From positions 14,444 through 73,367 of the forward strand of contig MNHO01000022.1 in NCBI GenBank assembly GCA_001919285.1: a stretch of 58,924 nucleotides of DNA, given 5' to 3'. Made by a program: the position numbers and the translations under genes. The DNA is from an archaeon 13_1_40CM_2_52_13 (GTDB lineage Archaea; Thermoproteota; Bathyarchaeia; 40CM-2-53-6). Shown here in pieces: positions 21,882-56,567 of the stretch. Under the pieces are notes generated by a model. That model had not been told where the DNA came from, ran no database searches, and was given only the letters and a program-made list of their open reading frames with translations. Within the stretch, counting starts at the first letter, position 1; every line of letters begins with the position of its first letter.

Positions 21882-22370
21882 TTGATCCGAGCGACCCTCT
21901 GCCTCATACTAAAGGACAACAAGATTCTGCTCCTCAAGAAATCGAAAGGCCTACTCGGGCAGGGAAAATGGAACGCTCCTGGCGGCAAGATACTGCCCAA
22001 TGAAGAGCCAAAGGCTTGTGCGGTTAGAGAGGTCTTCGAAGAAACCCGACTCATCGCAAAGAACCCAGAAGAAGTCGGCCTCCTATACTTCTACAACAAC
22101 AGCAAACGCATGAGTCTTGTATGGACAGTTCACGTGTTCCTAACTCACGAATTCGAGGGAGTGCCGATCAATGGACGAGAAGGACGGCTCGAATGGTTCA
22201 GTATCGATGCTCTACCCTTTGAGAAGATGTGGGAAGACGATCAATACTGGTACCGGTTAGCACTTGATGGAACTAGATTTGAGGGATGGTTCTATTACTC
22301 AGGCGAATTTGAGAAACTGATCGACCACAGGATAGAAGTCAAGTCACCACCAAATCGAATAGACGCTTGA
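21882..22370 (+). CDS. NUDIX hydrolase (MutT-like)
   Basis: It has the Nudix box GKWNAPGGKILPNEEPKACAVREVFEETRL. The track ORF starts at 21642, inside NAC in another frame. The in-frame TTG at 21882, just after the NAC stop, is the plausible start. Confidence 0.75.
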   Translation: MIRATLCLILKDNKILLLKKSKGLLGQGKWNAPGGKILPNEEPKACAVREVFEETRLIAKNPEEVGLLYFYNNSKRMSLVWTVHVFLTHEFEGVPINGREGRLEWFSIDALPFEKMWEDDQYWYRLALDGTRFEGWFYYSGEFEKLIDHRIEVKSPPNRIDA

Positions 22371-22438
22371 GACGGCCGTTCTTAGGTCTCTCAGACTTTA
22401 AGACCCAAAGACAGAACCGAAGGCACGGCAAGAGAGTA

Positions 22439-23968
22439 TTGAAGCTCATAGAGTGCGTTCCAAACTTCAGTGAAGGACGACGACAAGAAGTAATCAACTC
22501 AGTCGCAGAGACGATCCGATCAACGCCTGGTGTCACCCTTCTGGATGTAGAATCGAACCCAGACCACAATCGCTCCGTGATTAGCTTCGTCGGTGAACCG
22601 GGTCCCGTAAAGCAAGCGGCGCTCGCCGCATCAGCGAAAGCCATCGAACTCTTGGACCTCAACAAGCACGAGGGCGAACATCCTCGAATGGGGGCCGTCG
22701 ACGTCGTCCCGTTCGTACCATTGTCCGGAGCTACAATAGACGATTGTATAGCCCTGGCGAAAGATTTCGGGAGAGAATTTGCAGAGCGATTTCACGTCCC
22801 AGTCTTCTTCTATGAGGAGGCAGCTTCGACACCTGAAAGACGAAACCTTGCAGATGTAAGAGCAGGCGAATTTGAGGGACTCCGCGACAAAATAGGCAGA
22901 GACCCTGCGAAGAAGCCTGATTTCGGCCCAGACAAGATTCACCCGACAGCAGGAGCCACTGCTGTCGGTGCGCGGGAAATACTGATCGCCTACAACGTTA
23001 ACCTTGGGACAAACGACCTCTCGATCGCGAAGAAGATCGCGCACCAACTTCGGGCCAAGGATGGCGGTCTGTCCTACGTCAAAGCTCTCGGCTTTGAACT
23101 GAAAGAACGCGGAATTGTACAAGTCTCAATGAACATGACCGATTATCACAAGAGCCAGCTTTTCAAAGCCCAAGAACTCGTCGAGCTGTTCGCCGAAAGA
23201 TACGGTGTCCCAGTTGTTGGCAGCGAAATCGTAGGACTCGTCCCTATGGACGCCCTAGTTGATGCAGCCGAATTCTATCTGAAACTTGAGAATTTCAGCC
23301 GCGAACAGATTCTGGAGAAGCGACTATTCACACCCAGCCCTTCGAGCCTTACAGACATGAGCCTTTTGCGTTTCTCGGAAGAAGTCGGTTCAAAGAAAGC
23401 GACTCCGGGAGGAGGCAGTGTCTCAGCCTACATGGGCGCACTTGCCTCGGGACTCGTCTGCATGGTTGCAAGAATAACACTATCCAAGAAAGAGGTCGCG
23501 CAAGAGAGCGATCAACTACAAGAACTCATCAGGAAGGGAGAAGAGCTTCGTCAGCGATTCTTGGGACTGGTTGTCGAGGACGCTGAATCCTTCGATGCTG
23601 TCATGCAAGCGTTCAAGCTGCCCAAAGACAAGCCGGATGCTCGGAGAAAAACGATTCAAGAAGCCACAATGAAAGCAGCCGAAATACCTCTCCGAACACT
23701 GGAATCTTCTATCGAAGTTCTACACCTTGCGGGGGAGGTCGCGAAATACGGCGCTACCAATGCGCTGTCTGATATTACCACATCCATATCCGCAGGGCGA
23801 GCTGCTCTGGAAGGAGCTGCTAGCAATGTCCTGATCAATCTAGACATGCTGGATGACAAGCACTACGTAGACCAGACCCGTTCTCGCGTTTCCGAGCTAA
23901 GAAAAGAGGCTCTGCAACTAGAACAGAGAATTCAGGAAATTGTCGGATCTCGTTCTCGTAAGAAGTAG
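22439..23968 (+). CDS. bifunctional glutamate formimidoyltransferase / formimidoyltetrahydrofolate cyclodeaminase
   Basis: From the TTG at 22439 the translation reads (M)KLIECVPNFSEGRR, the typical transferase N-terminus. The C-terminal roughly 200 aa (GGGSVSAYMGALASGL...) is cyclodeaminase-like. Confidence 0.8.
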   Translation: MKLIECVPNFSEGRRQEVINSVAETIRSTPGVTLLDVESNPDHNRSVISFVGEPGPVKQAALAASAKAIELLDLNKHEGEHPRMGAVDVVPFVPLSGATIDDCIALAKDFGREFAERFHVPVFFYEEAASTPERRNLADVRAGEFEGLRDKIGRDPAKKPDFGPDKIHPTAGATAVGAREILIAYNVNLGTNDLSIAKKIAHQLRAKDGGLSYVKALGFELKERGIVQVSMNMTDYHKSQLFKAQELVELFAERYGVPVVGSEIVGLVPMDALVDAAEFYLKLENFSREQILEKRLFTPSPSSLTDMSLLRFSEEVGSKKATPGGGSVSAYMGALASGLVCMVARITLSKKEVAQESDQLQELIRKGEELRQRFLGLVVEDAESFDAVMQAFKLPKDKPDARRKTIQEATMKAAEIPLRTLESSIEVLHLAGEVAKYGATNALSDITTSISAGRAALEGAASNVLINLDMLDDKHYVDQTRSRVSELRKEALQLEQRIQEIVGSRSRKK

Positions 23969-23969
23969 C

Positions 23970-24323
23970 CTAGGCGTCCAGCTGAATCAGTCCCGTCTTC
24001 TTATCAGCCCACACCATCAACGGAGCCACAAGCATGGTCAACTCTCTCCCCTCCCGGGTCAGAAAATATTCCACTCGAGGAGGAATTTCCTGATAGGCTA
24101 CGCGCTTCACAAGCCCATTTCGTCTAAGATCTTTCAACACATCACTGAGAGTCTTTGCGCTTATGCCTGGAAGCTTCTGAGCCAAGTGGTTGAAGCGAAG
24201 CGTTCCCTCATTTCCAAGCTGAGCTAGCGCACATAAGACCCATTTCTTCCCGATGACATCAACGAGCCCCTCGCACGGACAGGGACAGATGCAACATGGT
24301 TCTCCTTCCTTTTGTCTAACCAT
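23970..24323 (-). CDS. HxlR family transcriptional regulator with a cysteine-rich N-terminus
   Basis: It reads VIGKKWVLCALAQLGNEGTLRFNHLAQKLPGISAKTLSDVLKDLRRNGLVKRVAYQEIPPRVEYFLTREG, which is an HxlR wHTH. The N-terminus is MVRQKEGEPCCICPCPCEG. Confidence 0.85.
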   Translation of the reverse strand: MVRQKEGEPCCICPCPCEGLVDVIGKKWVLCALAQLGNEGTLRFNHLAQKLPGISAKTLSDVLKDLRRNGLVKRVAYQEIPPRVEYFLTREGRELTMLVAPLMVWADKKTGLIQLDA

Positions 24324-24326
24324 TCC

Positions 24327-24407
24327 GTAACCCAGTTACCATATGGGAAGTTGCCGGGTTAAATACTTCACTTTGGTAACTCACGTTACTTACGGAGGTG
24401 AAGTTAC
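24327..24407. promoter_or_regulatory. operator-like GTAAC/GTTAC inverted repeats in the hxlR-micropeptide intergenic region
   Basis: GTAAC-N3-GTTAC lies at 24327-24339, 4 nt from the hxlR ATG. GTAAC-N4-GTTAC lies at 24376-24389. An extra GTTAC is at 24403-24407. That makes five copies of the pentamer pair in 81 nt. Confidence 0.4.
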
Positions 24408-24481
24408 TGGAGAATTGTTGCTCCTGCTGCGGTGGATGCTGCGGCGGCTGCTGTGGACCGACCAGCGCTAAAACGCCCTAA
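24398..24481 (+). CDS. poly-cysteine micropeptide (candidate; about 24-27 aa)
   Basis: I translated this frame by hand as (GTG)KL(CTG)ENCCSCCGGCCGGCCGPTSAKTP followed by TAA. GGAGGTGA lies at 24394-24401. Possible starts are GTG at 24398 or CTG at 24407. A hairpin and T7 run follow downstream. A paralogous copy is at 25572. Confidence 0.4.
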   Translation: MKLLENCCSCCGGCCGGCCGPTSAKTP

Positions 24482-24486
24482 GCGCA

Positions 24487-24537
24487 AAACCTTGCCTTTT
24501 TGGAGGCAGGTTGTCTCAATGTGATACCCATTTTTTT
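24487..24537 (+). terminator. hairpin plus T7 run downstream of micropeptide 1
   Basis: AACCTTGCCT/AGGCAGGTT forms a bulged stem at 24487-24512. TTTTTTT follows at 24531-24537. Confidence 0.4.
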
Positions 24538-24579
24538 GCCTGCTCCGCTCCGGCTTCTCCTAGCTTATGATCAGGTTTC

Positions 24580-25107
24580 TTGCCTCTCTGGTTAATAGCA
24601 GAATGGAAGAACAATATTCGATTAGTTAGACAAACTGGGATGCATTTGATATCTGTAACTCGACTTCTTCGAAAATTGAAACTTCGGCCAAGAACAGAAT
24701 CAGGAGACGGAGGGCTCTTTGCGTACCATGAAGCCAAGTCGGACTTGCTACTCATCTTTCGATGGGATGGAGCTGGCCTAACGAACTCCGGTAGAATTGT
24801 ACTCTTTGAACAAGAAGTACCGGGATTTCAACCGCTTCACATTCAAGGTCATCTGACCCGACTATTATTCATGATCCGTTCTGGCGACGCAGTAGCAAAG
24901 CTCGTTTGGATAGTTTCTAGTCCTCGGTACCATGACCTCGACAAGATCGTGTTCCCTTGGGTTCGAATGTGGGAGGCCGCTTTCGCTGGTAGATTTCCTC
25001 CCATCGAGTACCGAAATGAGAACGGAGAATATCTTGGGTCCCTTGGAGCAAGTCGTAACGGTAAGCATCGGGCGAAACCGGCAACAGCGAAATATGTCCA
25101 CTTTTGA
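24580..25107 (+). CDS. hypothetical protein (weak)
   Basis: This is the longest ORF in the interval at 175 aa. No family is recognised, the start is uncertain, and competing antisense ORFs exist. Confidence 0.25.
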   Translation: MPLWLIAEWKNNIRLVRQTGMHLISVTRLLRKLKLRPRTESGDGGLFAYHEAKSDLLLIFRWDGAGLTNSGRIVLFEQEVPGFQPLHIQGHLTRLLFMIRSGDAVAKLVWIVSSPRYHDLDKIVFPWVRMWEAAFAGRFPPIEYRNENGEYLGSLGASRNGKHRAKPATAKYVHF

Positions 25108-25320
25108 ATAGACCCGTGTTTCATTGCGAAGCAAGAGACTAGGGTATAATCACAGAGGACATAGCGATCCCAATGTTGGACCGACGAGTCGCCAACCTGT
25201 CAGTGCGAATGCGACTGAAAATCTAGAGGATCGCAATTCGTTTTTCCAACCATTTTTTCAGATTAGACCGTGACCCAAAACCGTCGAAGCTTTCTTCGCT
25301 ACCTGTCGCATTCAGTCAGT

Positions 25321-25545
25321 GCTCCGATCATCGCAACGAAGGTAAGGCTGAGCACTGGGGAGGGACCGAACAAGGAAGGACTCTCACGATACCGTATAAT
25401 GGACCATGCCAGGAGAAGGGAGTAACTCCATCTCAGATAGCATTAGCATGGCTGTTGCACAAGGGAATGTGCTCACCGATAATCGGGGCTAAAAAAGTAG
25501 AGCATGTTGAAGACGCGGTTCATTCCATGGGTGTTAAGCTGTCAC
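25321..25545 (+). pseudogene. internally deleted aldo/keto reductase remnant (paralog of 26447..27433)
   Basis: APIIATKVRLSTGEGPNKEGLSRYRIM aligns to AKR residues near 78-102. It then jumps directly to ...VTPSQIALAWLLHKGMCSPIIGAKKVEHVEDAVHSMGVKLS, which aligns to residues near 268-310. The N-terminus is missing, about 165 codons are deleted, and there are frame breaks. Confidence 0.65.
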
Positions 25546-25571
25546 TGCTCAGTTACCGAGGTGAAGCGTTA

Positions 25572-25658
25572 ATGAGCTGTTGTGGACCCGGCTGTGGATG
25601 TTGCGGCCCGGGATGTTGCTCGAGCGAGCAGTCAAGCGGGAACACTCGAAGGAGTTGA
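25572..25658 (+). CDS. poly-cysteine micropeptide (candidate; 28 aa)
   Basis: From the ATG at 25572 the translation is MSCCGPGCGCCGPGCCSSEQSSGNTRRS. GAGGTGA lies at 25558-25564, 7 nt upstream. It shares the upstream block GTTAC..CG(G)AGGTGAAG and the CCGP motif with the copy at 24398. Confidence 0.45.
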   Translation: MSCCGPGCGCCGPGCCSSEQSSGNTRRS

Positions 25659-25739: not shown

Positions 25740-26207
25740 CTAAGTGATAGACGTGGCGAATGCGGGAACTGGACCTAAGGTTGCACCAGTTGGTATGGCC
25801 CAATCCAGTTCGATAGCCAGAGTGCTAGCTGGAGTCAATATCATACTGTTTTCTGGACTACTAATCGTACCATAGCCCGACGGGGGACTGCCCGAGACCG
25901 TGATCGTGTCTGGAGCGCTGCCAGTGTTTATGACACACACATAATGCTTCACAGTCGCACCGGCAGCTAGAGGCCCCCAAACAATGCCTACAGGGCCTGG
26001 TCCGTAGCTCGTGGATGCACTTGGACAAGACGTTGGGGCGCTTGGTCCAATATCAGTAACTCCTAAAGTGGCGCCTTGAACTATGGTTGCAGTGTGGTTC
26101 AACGTTATGATATTGCTAGCGGCTAGCGCAAATGCGACGCCACCCACCATCACAAAAAGAAACAGACCGATGAATCGTCTAGCTACTTTCAAGCACCCAG
26201 ATACCAT
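25740..26207 (-). CDS. secreted/cell-surface hypothetical protein
   Basis: This is a 155 aa ORF with an N-terminal hydrophobic signal-anchor (FIGLFLFVMVGGVAFALAA). The remainder is rich in Gly, Pro, Ser and Thr. Confidence 0.45.
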   Translation of the reverse strand: MVSGCLKVARRFIGLFLFVMVGGVAFALAASNIITLNHTATIVQGATLGVTDIGPSAPTSCPSASTSYGPGPVGIVWGPLAAGATVKHYVCVINTGSAPDTITVSGSPPSGYGTISSPENSMILTPASTLAIELDWAIPTGATLGPVPAFATSIT

Positions 26208-26446: not shown

Positions 26447-27433
26447 ATGCAGTACATCCAACTAGGCCCCACCGGACTAGAGGTCTCGCGCATCTGTCTC
26501 GGAGCAATGTCTTTTGGTAATTCTGAAGAATGGATGGTAGAGATCGATAAGGCGAGGATGATTGTGAAACGTGCTCTTGACCTCGGTGTGAACTTCTTCG
26601 ACACTGCGAACGTTTACTCGAATGGAAGATCAGAGGAGATCATCGGGGAGCTTTTGAAGGACAATCGGGACGATGTAGTGATTGCCACAAAGGTCAGATT
26701 GAAGGTTGGCGAGGGACCGAACAGCGAAGGCCTCTCAAGATACCACATCATGGGTCAGGTGAAGAAGTCTCTCAAGCGTCTCCGAACTGATAGAATCGAT
26801 CTCTACCAGACGCACCGCTGGGACTACTCGACCCCGATAGAGGAAACGCTTCTCACTCTCAACGATCTGGTCCGACAGGGAATGGTCAATTACATAGGCA
26901 CTTCAAGCATGTTCACATGGCAATTCGCGAAAGCACTCGCTGCGAGCGACCTGCTGGGGGTCGCGCGTTTTGTCTCCATGCAGAATCACTACAGTCTTTG
27001 CTATCGTGAAGAAGAGCGAGAGATGATACCATTCTGCAAAGACCAAGAAACAGCTCTGATCCCCTGGAGCCCCTTGGCCCGCGGCTTCCTCACGGGAAGA
27101 TACAAACGAGGAGGAAAAACGGATACTCCGAGGTATCGGTCTGACAAGTATTTTGCTGAGAGATTCTTCAGACCAGAAGATTTCGACGTATTAGAGCGGG
27201 CCGAAGAGATAGCAAAGCAGAAGGGAGTGACCGTGTCTCAGATTGCCCTGGCTTGGCTATTACACAAAGGCGTCTGCGCTCCGATAATCGGAGCAACGAA
27301 GGTGGAGCACGTGGAAGATGCTGTCAGCGCGCTCGACGTAAAGCTCTCGCCGGATGACATGAAGAGGCTCGAAGAACCCTACAAGCCCCATCGAATAATA
27401 GGCCCGCTACTGGTCCCGGATGCCACGAGATAG
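26447..27433 (+). CDS. aldo/keto reductase
   Basis: This is a 328 aa ORF. GLEVSRICLGAMSFG, FFDTANVYSNGRSEEIIG, DLYQTHRWD and PIIGATKVEHVEDA are canonical AKR blocks. Confidence 0.9.
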   Translation: MQYIQLGPTGLEVSRICLGAMSFGNSEEWMVEIDKARMIVKRALDLGVNFFDTANVYSNGRSEEIIGELLKDNRDDVVIATKVRLKVGEGPNSEGLSRYHIMGQVKKSLKRLRTDRIDLYQTHRWDYSTPIEETLLTLNDLVRQGMVNYIGTSSMFTWQFAKALAASDLLGVARFVSMQNHYSLCYREEEREMIPFCKDQETALIPWSPLARGFLTGRYKRGGKTDTPRYRSDKYFAERFFRPEDFDVLERAEEIAKQKGVTVSQIALAWLLHKGVCAPIIGATKVEHVEDAVSALDVKLSPDDMKRLEEPYKPHRIIGPLLVPDATR

Positions 27434-27649: not shown

Positions 27650-28408
27650 TTACCTGATCTTCGCCGGCGTATTGAGATGTCGAAGTTGTGCTGGGTCCCA
27701 TCCGACTACTTCTACAGTTTCTCGACGACGAACTGTCTTCTCCGGATTCTCTGAGTGAAGCCGCTGAATGATCTTATCGTTGACTTCCGCCGGGACATCC
27801 CAAGAGACTGAAGATTTCCTCCTGTCGAACGAGTCTATCTCTTCATGCACATCGACATCTGTCCAATAGTCACCGACCAATTTGACGGTAGCTGGAGGTA
27901 CTACTCGGCGAAGCCCCGCCTCACCATCATTGAACCGATCCAGAGGATAGCCCATCTCCTTCCTCAGCTCCAAATACCTCGACCGCGGACTGAACCCCTC
28001 CCCATTCTCCACCTCTGCAACAATTACTCTCCCCGTCACTCGGCCTACTTCGCCAACTACCCGAACCCAATCGCGAACAAGATGCAACACATGAACCATG
28101 ATCGCACCATCAAAGACCCGATCCCGGAAAGGCAAATAGTGCGCATCAGCTCGGACCAAGCTTCGGATCCGCTTCTCCCGAGCCCTAGCCATCATAGAGA
28201 GTGACACGTCAATACCGACGACTTCGAAACCTGAATAATTCAGGTACTCTGCAAATCGTCCCGTCCCAATTCCCACATCGAGAATGGTCCTGCAACCAGC
28301 GAACAGTTCATTCATCGCGTTCAAGAGACTCTTCATTACTTCCGGTGGAACGCCAGACCATCTCGTAGCATCGTAGACGCCAGCTATACGATCAAAGGAA
28401 ACCGCCAA
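27650..28408 (-). CDS. class I SAM-dependent methyltransferase
   Basis: This is a 252 aa ORF. ILDVGIGTGRF is SAM motif I, and VFDGAIMVHVLHLV is a motif II/III-like region. Confidence 0.8.
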   Translation of the reverse strand: MAVSFDRIAGVYDATRWSGVPPEVMKSLLNAMNELFAGCRTILDVGIGTGRFAEYLNYSGFEVVGIDVSLSMMARAREKRIRSLVRADAHYLPFRDRVFDGAIMVHVLHLVRDWVRVVGEVGRVTGRVIVAEVENGEGFSPRSRYLELRKEMGYPLDRFNDGEAGLRRVVPPATVKLVGDYWTDVDVHEEIDSFDRRKSSVSWDVPAEVNDKIIQRLHSENPEKTVRRRETVEVVGWDPAQLRHLNTPAKIR

Positions 28409-55697: not shown

Positions 55698-56567
55698 ATG
55701 AAAAAGTTCATCCCGTTAGCAATCCTCGCTCTTCTCATCGTTCCGGCTTATGTCGTAGGTGCGAGATCTGATAGCGTATCCGGACCGAAACCGTCCATCG
55801 TTCTCATTCACGGTGCATGGGCGGACGGATCAGGTTGGAGCGGCGTTATCAGCCGTCTTCAAGACCAAGGATACACAGTATACGCTCCGTCGAATCCGTT
55901 GCGCGGCCTAGCATCTGACTCCGCCTACATTGCCAACTTCCTCCAGAGCATTAGCGGACCAATCATCCTTGTCGGACACTCGTATGGAGGCGCCGTCATC
56001 ACCAACGCGGCGACAGGAAATCCCAACGTTAAGGCCCTCGTCTACGTGGACGCCTTTGTGCCTGACCAAGGAGAGTCATTGATACAACTCCTCAGCATGC
56101 CACCACCAATCGGCCAATCAGCCTCCTGCCTAGGAGGAGACCCCAGCAAAGTGTTCAACTTTGTCAACTACCCGGGCGCTGCGGCTGGAGACTTCGACGT
56201 GTACATCAAGCAGAGCGTCTTCCCATCGTGCTTCGCAAATGATCAACCAGTCGACAAAGCTGCCATCTTAGCATCTGCGCAGCGTCCTGCGGTTCTCAGC
56301 ATACTACCCGCCATGTCAGGAGTACCCGCCTGGAAGTCGATTCCCAGCTGGTACCTGCTAGGAACAATTGACCTCGTCATCCCTCCGTATCTGCAGCTTT
56401 TCATGGCTCAGCGCGCGCACGCACAAATTGTCGACGTTAGGGCAGCACACCCCTCCATGATCTCCCACCCTGAAGCGGTAACACAATTGATCGAACAGGC
56501 AGCACAGACCGTGACAGAGAACTCCAACATCGGCTCGGGACTAACACTCGCATCCGCGAGTCTATAG
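55698..56567 (+). CDS. secreted alpha/beta hydrolase
   Basis: A signal peptide is followed by IVLIHGAWADGSGW and the nucleophile elbow VGHSYGG. GGAGGTGA lies at 55681-55688. Confidence 0.8.
   Translation: MKKFIPLAILALLIVPAYVVGARSDSVSGPKPSIVLIHGAWADGSGWSGVISRLQDQGYTVYAPSNPLRGLASDSAYIANFLQSISGPIILVGHSYGGAVITNAATGNPNVKALVYVDAFVPDQGESLIQLLSMPPPIGQSASCLGGDPSKVFNFVNYPGAAAGDFDVYIKQSVFPSCFANDQPVDKAAILASAQRPAVLSILPAMSGVPAWKSIPSWYLLGTIDLVIPPYLQLFMAQRAHAQIVDVRAAHPSMISHPEAVTQLIEQAAQTVTENSNIGSGLTLASASL

Follow-up and report, generated by a model that had tools for sequence, protein, structure and literature searches.

Beside an HxlR-type regulator gene of the archaeon 13_1_40CM_2_52_13 (Bathyarchaeia) lies a very short open reading frame (ORF) rich in cysteine codons, which raises the question of whether so small a frame is a gene and what a winged-helix regulator and a thiol-rich peptide might do together. 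The stretch of DNA analysed here, referred to as the window, comprises 58,924 nucleotides (nt) of contig MNHO01000022.1 (positions 14,444 to 73,367, forward strand). A sequence-only reading of the window had proposed that positions 24324-24537 form a self-contained, HxlR-controlled transcription unit with its own Shine-Dalgarno (SD) sequence, operator-like repeats and terminator, encoding a thiol-rich peptide unlike any archaeal family described. Our analysis supports this proposal and partly confirms the observations behind it: the peptides belong to a family that is protein-coding in the Cys frame and always divergent from an HxlR regulator with an N-terminal Cys cluster, and the intergenic region between the two genes has a fixed architecture. 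As to function, we lean towards a metallothionein-like peptide with a dedicated regulator.

A cysteine-rich micropeptide family divergent from hxlR

The frame at 24398-24481 on the plus strand translates as had been read, yielding MKLLENCCSCCGGCCGGCCGPTSAKTP. Its Cys content, given as 10 in a 13-residue core, had been overestimated; the core CCSCCGGCCGGCC contains 8, and so does the entire peptide, about one third of whose residues are Cys. The divergent regulator gene was confirmed at 23970-24323 on the minus strand as a member of Pfam family PF01638 (E = 1.2e-24, 86.4 bits against a cut-off of 20.8). Counted from the position homologous to the start codon of its relatives, a CTG in the window, the micropeptide ORF spans 24407-24481 and encodes (M)ENCCSCCGGCCGGCCGPTSAKTP followed by a stop codon, while the alternative in-frame GTG at 24398 would give a peptide of 27 amino acids (aa). 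The peptide position is without a gene call in 10 out of 10 public contigs having an identical HxlR. Segments with at least 6 Cys per 14 residues occur twice in the window, in this proximal ORF and in another at 25572-25658, and in none of 30 shuffles.

Database searches placed neither window peptide in a described family. No Pfam or NCBIfam family was found at an E value of 1 or below, apart from one chance match to a coronavirus spike tail, and the Rfam and tRNA scans of the window came back empty. Searches of two protein sets (5.8 billion, queried with a 40-aa window reference, and 1.84 billion representative sequences, by phmmer) retrieved as true relatives only P0121 (30 aa), which was all that the larger search found, and P0122 (a 142-aa fusion described below); a further match, P0123, is a spurious repeat protein.

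We then turned to the neighbourhood of related regulators. From genome contigs, metagenome contigs and look-ups of distant HxlR proteins, 101 loci were assembled (designated by L numbers below) whose HxlR carries the N-terminal motif PCCxCPCPC (71 to 100% HxlR identity). A divergent Cys-rich micro-ORF was present in 98 of the 98 that have enough upstream DNA, and its start lies 79 to 86 nt from the hxlR start, with one exception that carries a 21-bp duplication. Linkage to hxlR, which the sequence-only reading had named as a point to check, is thus without exception in these relatives. None of 76 loci with other HxlR homologues had a poly-Cys micro-ORF upstream, and many of the archaeal ones encode longer Cys/His-rich proteins there. 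Many soil-metagenome contigs, as well as GCA_005884635.1, carry the identical HxlR, whose closest matches in the genome collection are metagenome-assembled genomes of Candidatus Bathyarchaeota.

The 98 micro-ORFs correspond to 48 distinct peptides of 19 to 29 aa (median 26) with 5 to 10 Cys (median 27%). Residues G, S, P, T, Q, E and N are abundant in them, whereas aromatic residues occur in 3/48 and His in 2/48. In composition, the family has the features by which metallothioneins are operationally recognised, namely small size, about 25 to 30% or more Cys arranged in CC, CxC or CxxC, and few aromatics or His. Three main types can be distinguished: an S-type (MSCCGPGCGCCGPGCCSNEQ...), a G-type (MGCCCCGCCGPGCCTNEQ...) and an EN-type ((M)ENCCSCCGGCCGGCCGP...), to which the proximal copy in the window belongs. 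The most divergent members, at L011:3869-3922 (MDGCECPCGCGCCGPGF) and in L183 (MDCGCDCGPECCTDES...), show a CxC spacing that resembles the N-terminal CCxCPCPC of the regulator.

The pattern of substitutions shows that the Cys frame is under selection at the protein level. For the S-type, the commonest subtype, codons 2-16 of the core were compared among 16 distinct DNA sequences of the same length; variation was seen at 11 of the 15 third positions but at just 1 of the 30 first and second positions (Fisher p = 1.4e-6). In the EN-type, the 17-codon core of the window differs from that of L150 by 5 substitutions, all of them synonymous and none non-synonymous. Across the family, the Cys codons TGC (215) and TGT (187) alternate freely, and the Cys/Gly tract changes its length by in-frame indels only. 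The conservation of the Cys frame, likewise put forward earlier as a check, is therefore borne out by mostly synonymous variation. A hypervariable simple repeat in place of the TGC/GGC tract had also been named as something that would count against the proposal; a base-by-base comparison of 10 conspecific contigs showed no difference in the tract, which together with the restriction to in-frame indels argues against a free-running repeat. Collectively, these data show that the micropeptides are encoded in the Cys frame, in every case divergently from a Cys-cluster HxlR.

Regulator and intergenic control region

The hxlR gene encodes a 117-aa winged-helix protein of the HxlR/DUF24 family with C10, C11, C13, C15 and C17 near its N terminus, plus C31. 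The PCCxCPCPC motif is invariant in 14 relatives of 71 to 94% identity. The best solved relatives of the regulator are Bacillus subtilis HxlR (7bze, 1e-16), YybR/HypR (4a5m), YodB and QsrR, with structures 5hs7 and 4hqm also among them. C15-P16 aligns with the N-terminal Cys of HxlR (7bze) and with the C-P of YybR (4a5m) at the N terminus of helix 1, so that the conserved helix-1 Cys of the family is present by alignment, and the equivalent Cys is kept in archaeal homologues. In HxlR and YybR/HypR, the N-terminal Cys serves as the sensor. Archaeal homologues of 43 to 57% identity share a C-x-C-P motif, corresponding to C13 and C15, to which C10, C11 and C17 are added in the soil clade. YodB senses electrophiles through its reactive N-terminal Cys6 (PMC8063818). 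On its other side, hxlR is convergent with the gene for formimidoyltransferase-cyclodeaminase (22367-23968, plus strand), the two stop codons being separated by 1 base; this adjacency is retained in most related loci, and in a few there is an intervening gene.

Between the divergent genes, the two inverted repeats that had been noticed earlier, GTAAC-N3-GTTAC (24327-24339) and GTAAC-N4-GTTAC (24376-24389), are found a single time each in the 58.9-kb window, as against 0.01 and 0.02 occurrences, respectively, predicted by shuffling. Five of the window's 59 GTAAC/GTTAC sites do fall within 24327-24407, as compared with about 0.08 expected in 81 nt from the window density, but the fifth (24403-24407) lies inside the ORF as originally read, and the gap between the hxlR ATG and 24398, given as 81 nt, is actually 74 nt.

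The first palindrome, Box 1 (GTAAC-CCA-GTTAC, 24327-24339), begins 4 nt from the hxlR start codon and is a putative autoregulatory operator. Nearly all of the 61 distinct intergenic regions keep it; although it is broken (GTAAT) in 4 of 10 near-identical strains, it is conserved family-wide. At the centre of the region is a TATA-like box, GTTAAATA (24358-24365), part of the invariant GTTAAATACTTCAC and itself nearly invariant in the intergenic alignment, which is possibly shared by both divergent promoters. Box 2 (GTAAC-TCAC-GTTAC, 24376-24389), between the TATA box and the SD, is the putative operator of the peptide gene. In most relatives it reads GGTAAC-N3-GTTACC, and a 5-nt insertion common to several lineages, including that of the window, has produced the N4 form. 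The consensus of the 61 regions is CAT-TCC-GTAAC-CCA-GTTAC ... GGGAACTT ... GTTAAATACTTCAC-TTTG-GTAAC-TNA-GTTACC-GAGGTGAAG-N-ATG. The 79-86-nt intergenic region thus has a fixed architecture of Box 1, TATA box, Box 2, SD and start codon. In L124 (360-480), a 21-bp tandem duplication of the hxlR start and Box 1 (CATTCCGTAACCCAGTTACAC then CATTCCGTAACCCAGTTAC) provides an additional operator copy.

The palindromes are confined to this region. In 558 kb of related loci we counted 135 of them (116 N3 and 19 N4), every one of them between hxlR and the peptide gene. The TATA box has its centre near 24362; if transcription starts about 25 nt away, as expected, the peptide transcript would begin within Box 2 and that of hxlR within Box 1, the usual position for an archaeal repressor to act. 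The repeats are therefore conserved and confined as operators would be, and this conservation suggests the control by HxlR that had been proposed for them. The YodB box TACT-N7-AGTA (PMC8063818) has the same 4+7+4 geometry as GGTAAC-N3-GTTACC when the latter is read as GGTA-N7-TACC.

At the other end of the transcript, the hairpin at 24487-24512 can be drawn as had been suggested, but nothing sets its folding energy apart (z = -1.13; 29 of 200 shuffles did at least as well) and it is not conserved in the relative L150. Given also its distance of 18 nt from the T7 run, we rejected it as a bacterial-type intrinsic terminator; the T run alone is conserved. This run, present at 24531-24537 on the plus strand as had been observed, is the likely archaeal oligo-T terminator of the peptide transcript, and a T run occupies the same position in L150 and L164. 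Runs of at least 5 T within 80 nt past the stop codon occur in 30 of 67 distinct loci, compared with 4.5% of random windows. Together with the convergent gene that usually follows, this enrichment supports a monocistronic peptide unit. A scan for sigma-70 promoters and intrinsic terminators returned none on the plus strand at the locus, a result that is uninformative for an archaeon.

Translation start, second peptide copy and local rearrangement

The SD motif GGAGGTGA is present at 24394-24401 on the plus strand, where it had been placed, and is conserved in relatives. The GTG at 24398 that had been taken as the start codon falls inside it, so the two cannot both function as described. All relatives keep (G)GAGGTGAAG, with a few GGGGTGAAG variants, and their start codon follows about 3-9 nt past the conserved GAAG. 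In the window, the homologous position is the CTG at 24407, 5 nt after the SD. Nearly all relatives have ATG there, with TTG in L012, L013, L123, L152 and L155 and GTG in L112 and L148; L150, for example, reads ATG-ENCCSCCGGCCGGCCGPTSTQTP. The CTG allele is common to 12 public contigs and is the sole copy in L164, and a 1-nt insertion in the window allele brings the upstream GTG into frame. With a CTG at the homologous start and the in-frame GTG buried in the SD, translation of the proximal ORF in the window strain is plausible but uncertain. A comparably strong SD hexamer precedes only 2 long ORFs in the window (starts at 55698, plus strand, and 28408, minus strand), which makes the conserved SD of the peptide gene stand out. 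Most genes of the organism seem to be without a strong SD, unlike the peptide genes.

The region downstream of the proximal ORF has been rearranged. In relatives, the usual order is hxlR, intergenic region, peptide gene, a convergent gene for a 155-aa protein and an aldo-keto reductase (AKR) gene. The window contains an extra segment of about 1.14 kb (approximately 24405-25547), missing from most relatives, that comprises the body of the EN-type peptide, an ORF designated ORF175 and an AKR fragment; the synteny alignment with other loci breaks here and resumes at 25548. ORF175 (24580-25107, plus strand) has no Pfam or NCBIfam match. It was found only in the window lineage, L148 and L150 (72 to 75% aa identity), always with EN-type peptides, and may be a cassette that travels with them. 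The AKR fragment (25227-25571, plus strand) is a pseudogene that matches PF00248 (E = 3e-8) over model positions 207-279 only and shares 78% identity, over 45 aa, with the full AKR (26447-27433).

This fragment is open in frame into a second, canonical S-type micropeptide, MSCCGPGCGCCGPGCCSSEQSSGNTRRS (25572-25658, plus strand), which starts with ATG and represents the commonest form adjoining hxlR in relatives; the public gene call P0122 fuses the AKR fragment and this peptide. The SD of the second copy (GAGGTGAAG, 25558-25566, plus strand) is preceded only by the right half-site AGTTAC. Next comes the 155-aa ORF (orf155, 25740-26207, minus strand), whose N-terminal segment is hydrophobic and for which neither Pfam nor NCBIfam gave a match. 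Many relatives have kept it (29 to 89% identity), typically in convergent orientation between the peptide gene and AKR, and on the opposite strand in a few. A peptide-AKR operon as a general rule was rejected, as this convergent gene usually intervenes and no operator precedes AKR. We also rejected the methyltransferase encoded at 27650-28408 as a candidate ArsM, given that it produced weak generic methyltransferase matches only.

Candidate function and relation to known systems

What the pair might respond to is suggested by the partners of related regulators in 29 more distant archaeal loci (Bathyarchaeia, Methanomicrobiales, Methanosarcinales, Archaeoglobus, Nitrososphaerota and others). 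In 15 of them the same divergent position, about 70-130 nt upstream of hxlR, encodes a 44-97-aa protein with a Cys/His-rich N terminus and a C-terminal coiled coil, as exemplified by MDEDCGCGGHHRRHEDHCGCG...KAEKLEKLKSYAEELKNELKAVEEKIKEM (loci L014-L042). Most of these proteins are labelled "hypothetical protein" at the source, with a few odd labels; they are weakly DUF5320-like (E = 0.03-0.5, below the cut-off), and some are annotated as DUF5320, a family for which we know of no function. In L017, L023, L024 and L025, genes for an ABC ATPase and an ABC-2 permease come after that of the small Cys/His-rich protein. Elsewhere, a C-x-C HxlR is divergent from arsD-arsA (L030:1664-3924, with a genuine ArsD at 97.9 bits against a cut-off of 90), from a SelW-like protein and ACR3 (L034:2494-3924), from arsB (L042:1921-3294) or from an HMA-domain P-type ATPase (L035:1459-3918), with perfect palindromes such as AATGCTAC-N7-GTAGCATT just past the TATA box. 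The distant intergenic regions share a TTTAAATACTT core, palindromes on its flanks such as ACTAT-N7-ATAGT or ATACTAC-N7-GTAGTAT, and GGAGGTGA before the small ORF, and the DUF5320-like loci have the promoter core, SD and layout in common with the window locus. The ars-linked arrangements suggest an HxlR-type regulator of archaeal ars operons, which we did not find described in the literature searched. The repeated pairing of related regulators with metal(loid) resistance genes is our main ground for preferring a thiophilic metal(loid) to organic electrophiles as the signal; by association with the partners of homologues about 45% identical, it points to metal(loid) sensing.

On the sequence evidence as a whole, we lean towards the view that the locus encodes a dedicated regulator and, as its partner, a cytosolic, thiol-rich peptide of only about 24-28 aa that resembles a metallothionein. 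In this scheme, an HxlR dimer would bind both GTAAC-N3/4-GTTAC boxes, which flank the central TATA box at the expected transcription starts, and would repress both hxlR and the peptide gene. The N-terminal Cys cluster (C10, C11, C13, C15 and C17) would be engaged by thiol-reactive agents, which would cause HxlR to leave the DNA. The likeliest agents would be soft metal(loid)s such as As(III), Cu(I), Cd or Hg, with electrophiles or oxidants as the alternative. The strongly SD-led mRNA would then be translated into a peptide whose CC, CxC and CC-x3-C motifs could sequester the agent and reset the sensor. Among the functions that had been offered for the peptide, that of a metallothionein-like metal or metal(loid) buffer gains support from the ars and metal-transporter partners, whereas that of a precursor of a ribosomally synthesised and post-translationally modified peptide (RiPP) is poorly supported.

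A broader proposal, to which we give less credence and which we put forward tentatively, is that the window locus is the minimal form of a hitherto unrecognised, multi-phylum archaeal stress module. The Cys-motif HxlR (CxCP, here CCxCPCPC) would be a direct sensor of soft metal(loid)s such as As(III), Cu or Cd and represent a new class of metalloregulator. The divergent gene under its control would specify an ultra-small metallothionein or metallochaperone, the first such from archaea, and elsewhere the module would be wired to ars genes, a heavy-metal P-type ATPase or ABC-2 exporters.

Several observations weigh against a metallothionein-like unit responding to metal(loid)s. Neither window peptide matches known metallothionein families (BmtA/SmtA and other metallothioneins in Pfam and NCBIfam), and the micropeptides cannot, at this length, be shown to be homologous to the longer DUF5320-like proteins. 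The ars-linked homologues are only 43 to 46% identical to the window regulator, and in the soil-clade loci no metal or ars transporter adjoins the pair. In the AlphaFold2 model the winged-helix core is confident, while residues 1-21, which hold the Cys cluster, are unmodelled (predicted local distance difference test score below 50). The proximal copy has a non-canonical start (CTG, or GTG within the SD and without usable spacing), and upstream of the second copy there is half of Box 2 only, with no TATA box and no full operator. The syntenic AKR, whose best match, below the family cut-off, is a methylglyoxal reductase, fits carbonyl or electrophile stress equally well. Finally, the HxlR/DUF24 regulators characterised so far are known as sensors of electrophiles or oxidants, not of metals, as in the case of YodB (PMC8063818).

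These last two points make a serious rival of the version in which the same gene pair answers to organic electrophiles or oxidants (quinones, methylglyoxal-type aldehydes or HOCl-type oxidants), the regulator sensing them by S-alkylation or disulfide formation as YodB, QsrR and HypR do and the peptide acting as a sacrificial thiol buffer. Family membership, the electrophile-sensing N-terminal Cys of YodB (PMC8063818), the alignment of C15 with its HxlR and YybR equivalents and the synteny of AKR in many lineages speak for it. Yet the operator palindrome is absent upstream of AKR, as it is everywhere else outside the hxlR-peptide region, the convergent gene usually separates the peptide from AKR so that there is no obvious co-regulation, and it is ars genes and a heavy-metal ATPase that adjoin related regulators. 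Moreover, clusters of five Cys and CC doublets belong more typically to metal-thiolate chemistry. On these grounds we regard the electrophile version as rather unlikely. The suggestion of a RiPP precursor, for instance of a chalkophore or a thioamide-type product, we consider very improbable. It would suit a short, Cys-rich peptide with a variable tail and with ORF175 and orf155, which have no assigned function, nearby, but the Cys core starts at residue 3 and leaves no room for a leader, and no radical-SAM, YcaO, lanthipeptide-synthetase or DUF692-type gene occurs in the conserved neighbourhood. The neighbours, furthermore, vary by lineage with only hxlR constant, and L181 and L182 are without any co-directional next gene.

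Other explanations concern the reading frame itself. The proximal ORF (24398/24407-24481) of this strain might be a decaying or poorly translated paralogue, the functional copy being that at 25572-25658, or neither being functional. We judge this doubtful, yet it has a real chance of being correct: the ORF has CTG where relatives have ATG, GTG or TTG, the window lineage possesses a second copy with an SD and ATG, and the 1.14-kb segment resembles a rearrangement that left the AKR pseudogene behind. On the other side, the ORF is intact in all 13 sequences of the allele (12 public contigs and the window), L164 has no other copy, the core changes relative to L150 are all synonymous, the 1-nt insertion that puts the upstream GTG in frame may rescue initiation, and it is the distal copy that is without the conserved TATA box and operators. 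A much smaller chance, one that our data largely refute, is left to the Cys codon run being a Cys-tRNA-sensing leader peptide or a productless GC-rich simple repeat. The dense succession of a single codon type, with a hairpin and a T run after it, would be in keeping with a leader, and Tandem Repeats Finder reports a weak 12-nt repeat (2.4 copies, 24425-24453, score 44). However, the third-position periodicity reveals selection on the amino acid sequence, the next gene is convergent in many relatives so that nothing lies downstream to be attenuated, the hairpin is neither significant nor conserved, the tract does not differ among the conspecific contigs, and the Rfam scan was empty.

The metallothionein-like pair that we favour has parallels among known systems. 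In the cyanobacterial smtB-smtA system, smtA and smtB are transcribed divergently, and SmtA is a protein of about 56 aa with a Zn4Cys9His2 zinc-finger-like fold, whereas the peptides described here have 24-28 aa, CC doublets and almost no His. The system, from Synechococcus PCC 7942, combines a winged-helix repressor at inverted repeats near the start, its release by metal and a Cys-rich product (PMC8790569), and the window locus would follow the same logic in its layout of regulator, palindromes and Cys-rich product. It differs in that the regulator belongs to HxlR/DUF24 and not to ArsR/SmtB, the promoter is archaeal and TATA-based, and no Pfam or NCBIfam similarity is seen. The fungal Cu metallothioneins of about 25 aa (Neurospora crassa CuMT type) and mycobacterial MymT have no aromatics and no metal-free folded core. 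Size class, Cys fraction and scarcity of aromatics are alike in the micropeptides, with no detectable sequence homology; the fungal proteins have CxC spacing, whereas the peptides here have mostly CC and CC-x3-C. The hosts of those proteins are eukaryotic or actinobacterial, and their regulators are of the ACE1 type in fungi and CsoR/RicR for MymT.

The regulator itself shares with HxlR, YodB, YybR/HypR and Staphylococcus aureus QsrR the Pfam family, the N-terminal Cys of helix 1 and palindromes of 13-15 bp, here putative operators, and HxlR/DUF24 regulators are often divergent from their target gene. The known members have one N-terminal sensor Cys, sometimes with a second elsewhere, while this clade has five within eight residues, and their targets are oxidoreductases, where the putative target here is a poly-Cys peptide. 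To our knowledge, no HxlR/DUF24 member senses metals or metalloids, and no link between HxlR and arsenite was found among the best-ranked literature matches. As for the vicinal-Cys chemistry of ars operons, ArsD binds As(III) via CC-x4-C and ArsR uses CVC; the S-type peptide has CC-x3-C and C-x-CC triads. The window peptides do not match the ArsD profile (PF06953/NF033727, with Cys12-Cys13-Cys18), and their length is about 25 aa as opposed to about 110-120 aa. Nor do they match DUF5320 (PF17253), and they are without the coiled coil, the part that the Pfam model matches. The literature searched contained no description of these peptides or of an HxlR-arsenic link, none of the papers listed by the search used the phrase "archaeal metallothionein", and we know of no characterised archaeal metallothionein. 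A pair of a thiol-rich binder and a winged-helix sensor, as the locus appears to encode, is not described for archaea in that literature.

The peptides are invisible to standard annotation, and a conserved, presumed stress-response gene has consequently been missed in a widespread group of soil archaea. If metal(loid) binding proves true, the locus would provide an archaeal metallothionein at the lower size limit for such proteins and would add metal(loid)s to the electrophiles and oxidants that the HxlR/DUF24 family senses. As a compact two-gene unit (117 aa and about 25 aa, with an 80-bp control region), it is a potential biosensor part that is readily testable in vitro. It would also offer a handle on the unexplained DUF5320-like Cys/His-rich proteins that lie beside related regulators in methanogens, Archaeoglobi and other Bathyarchaeia.

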